A report generated by a model with database tools continues below. The report concerns a stretch of DNA of 64,000 nucleotides, from assembly GCA_045537795.1 (NCBI GenBank), contig JAZSQE010000065.1, forward strand, positions 101,418-165,417, written 5' to 3'. The letters are not shown here. The stretch is from Kiritimatiellia bacterium (lineage in GTDB: Bacteria; Verrucomicrobiota; Kiritimatiellia; RFP12; UBA1067).

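Follow-up and report, generated by a model that had tools for sequence, protein, structure and literature searches.

The antisense open reading frames that shadow the genes of the operon, one of which encodes 803 aa, were rejected as real genes. Their codon-position GC shows high GC1 and lower GC3, and they were therefore judged to be artefacts of GC-rich sequence.

Several other genes of the window deserve mention. The hexokinase, which is followed by a PPIase gene, is of the eukaryote type, a glucose kinase type unusual among bacteria. The 681-aa protein resembles the Fkp-like bifunctional L-fucokinase/GDP-fucose pyrophosphorylase, an enzyme with a role in fucose salvage. No B subunit was found beside the homologue of the V/A-type ATPase catalytic A-subunit; pgi lies immediately downstream of it, and the two small ORFs preceding it have no Pfam matches. 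The sole recognisable part of the 702-aa protein is its GreA/GreB domain, the N-terminal extension of ~530 residues being without annotation.

Coordinates of the features discussed
Feature	Locus	Position	Strand	Evidence
803-aa ORF antisense to the FAD and partner genes	window	39635-42046	-	
Further antisense ORFs (examples)	window	35701-37239; 38202-39512	-	
681-aa protein	window	13414-15459		fucose pyrophosphorylase and GHMP kinase domains
702-aa protein	window	17373-19481		C-terminal GreA/GreB domain, residues about 539-683
Hexokinase	window	23225-24538		Pfam Hexokinase_1 and Hexokinase_2
Two small ORFs	window	28059-29134		
V/A-type ATPase A-subunit homologue, 590 aa	window	29166-30938		
pgi	window	30952-32601		
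Region with ygcU/ygcE (AGPS-like/FGGY pair)	L084, E. coli K-12	2888000-2906000		
819-aa fusion	L008	18251-20710		DAO-type flavoprotein, BFD-like [2Fe-2S] and pyridine-nucleotide-disulphide oxidoreductase domains
nagB-like/nagA regions after the aldolase gene, Victivallales	L001; L063; L074	17033-20835; 8677-10613; 17058-17846		
LarA	L037	6888-8180		NF033504, 627 bits vs. cutoff 460
FucI-like cluster, plasmid NZ_CP128401.1	L086	66359-87687		

Genes for AGPS-like FAD proteins and FGGY kinases are a widespread pair, repeatedly found side by side (loci L084, L091, L092, L093 and L095). In E. coli, genes for ETF, ETF-QO and a GlpP-like antiterminator accompany the pair, and its other hosts include Roseibium, Shinella, Novosphingobium and Enterococcus gilvus.

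In some related loci, further genes come after those of the operon. The 819-aa fusion gene comes after the MFS gene in one Kiritimatiellae locus; a Mesorhizobium neighbour of similar size was rejected as its orthologue at 22% identity. Downstream of the aldolase gene, several Victivallales loci carry a nagB-like gene together with a true nagA (275.7 vs. cutoff 225.65), followed in L001 by genes for an AP_endonuc_2 protein and an IolG-like GFO protein (165 bits).

The FucI-like gene also occurs in other company. On a plasmid of Ca. Chlorohelix allophototropha, a 30% identical FucI-like gene is accompanied by genes for a PPi-dependent phosphofructokinase, an SSADH-like dehydrogenase, nitrite/sulfite reductase and siroheme synthesis, together with phosphoglycerate-dehydrogenase-like and threonine-synthase-like genes; the set resembles a cluster for sulfoquinovose that includes its own sulfite reduction. 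Locus L037 has a FucI-IolB pair without the remaining operon genes, and immediately after the pair comes the gene for LarA, a genuine nickel-dependent lactate racemase.

In rumen Kiritimatiellae the FucI-like isomerase forms a multi-copy family with 73–93% identity to the window protein (L013, L019, L021, L024, L043, L046, L058 and others, the gene lying at about 10001-11362 in each), and many of the copies are located outside the operon. The non-operon copies adjoin GFO_IDH_MocA_C2 proteins, which resemble the glycoside 3-dehydrogenase BT_2158 (112 bits), as well as long AP_endonuc_2 proteins. These neighbours suggest that such copies are linked to oxidative 3-keto-glycoside cleavage.
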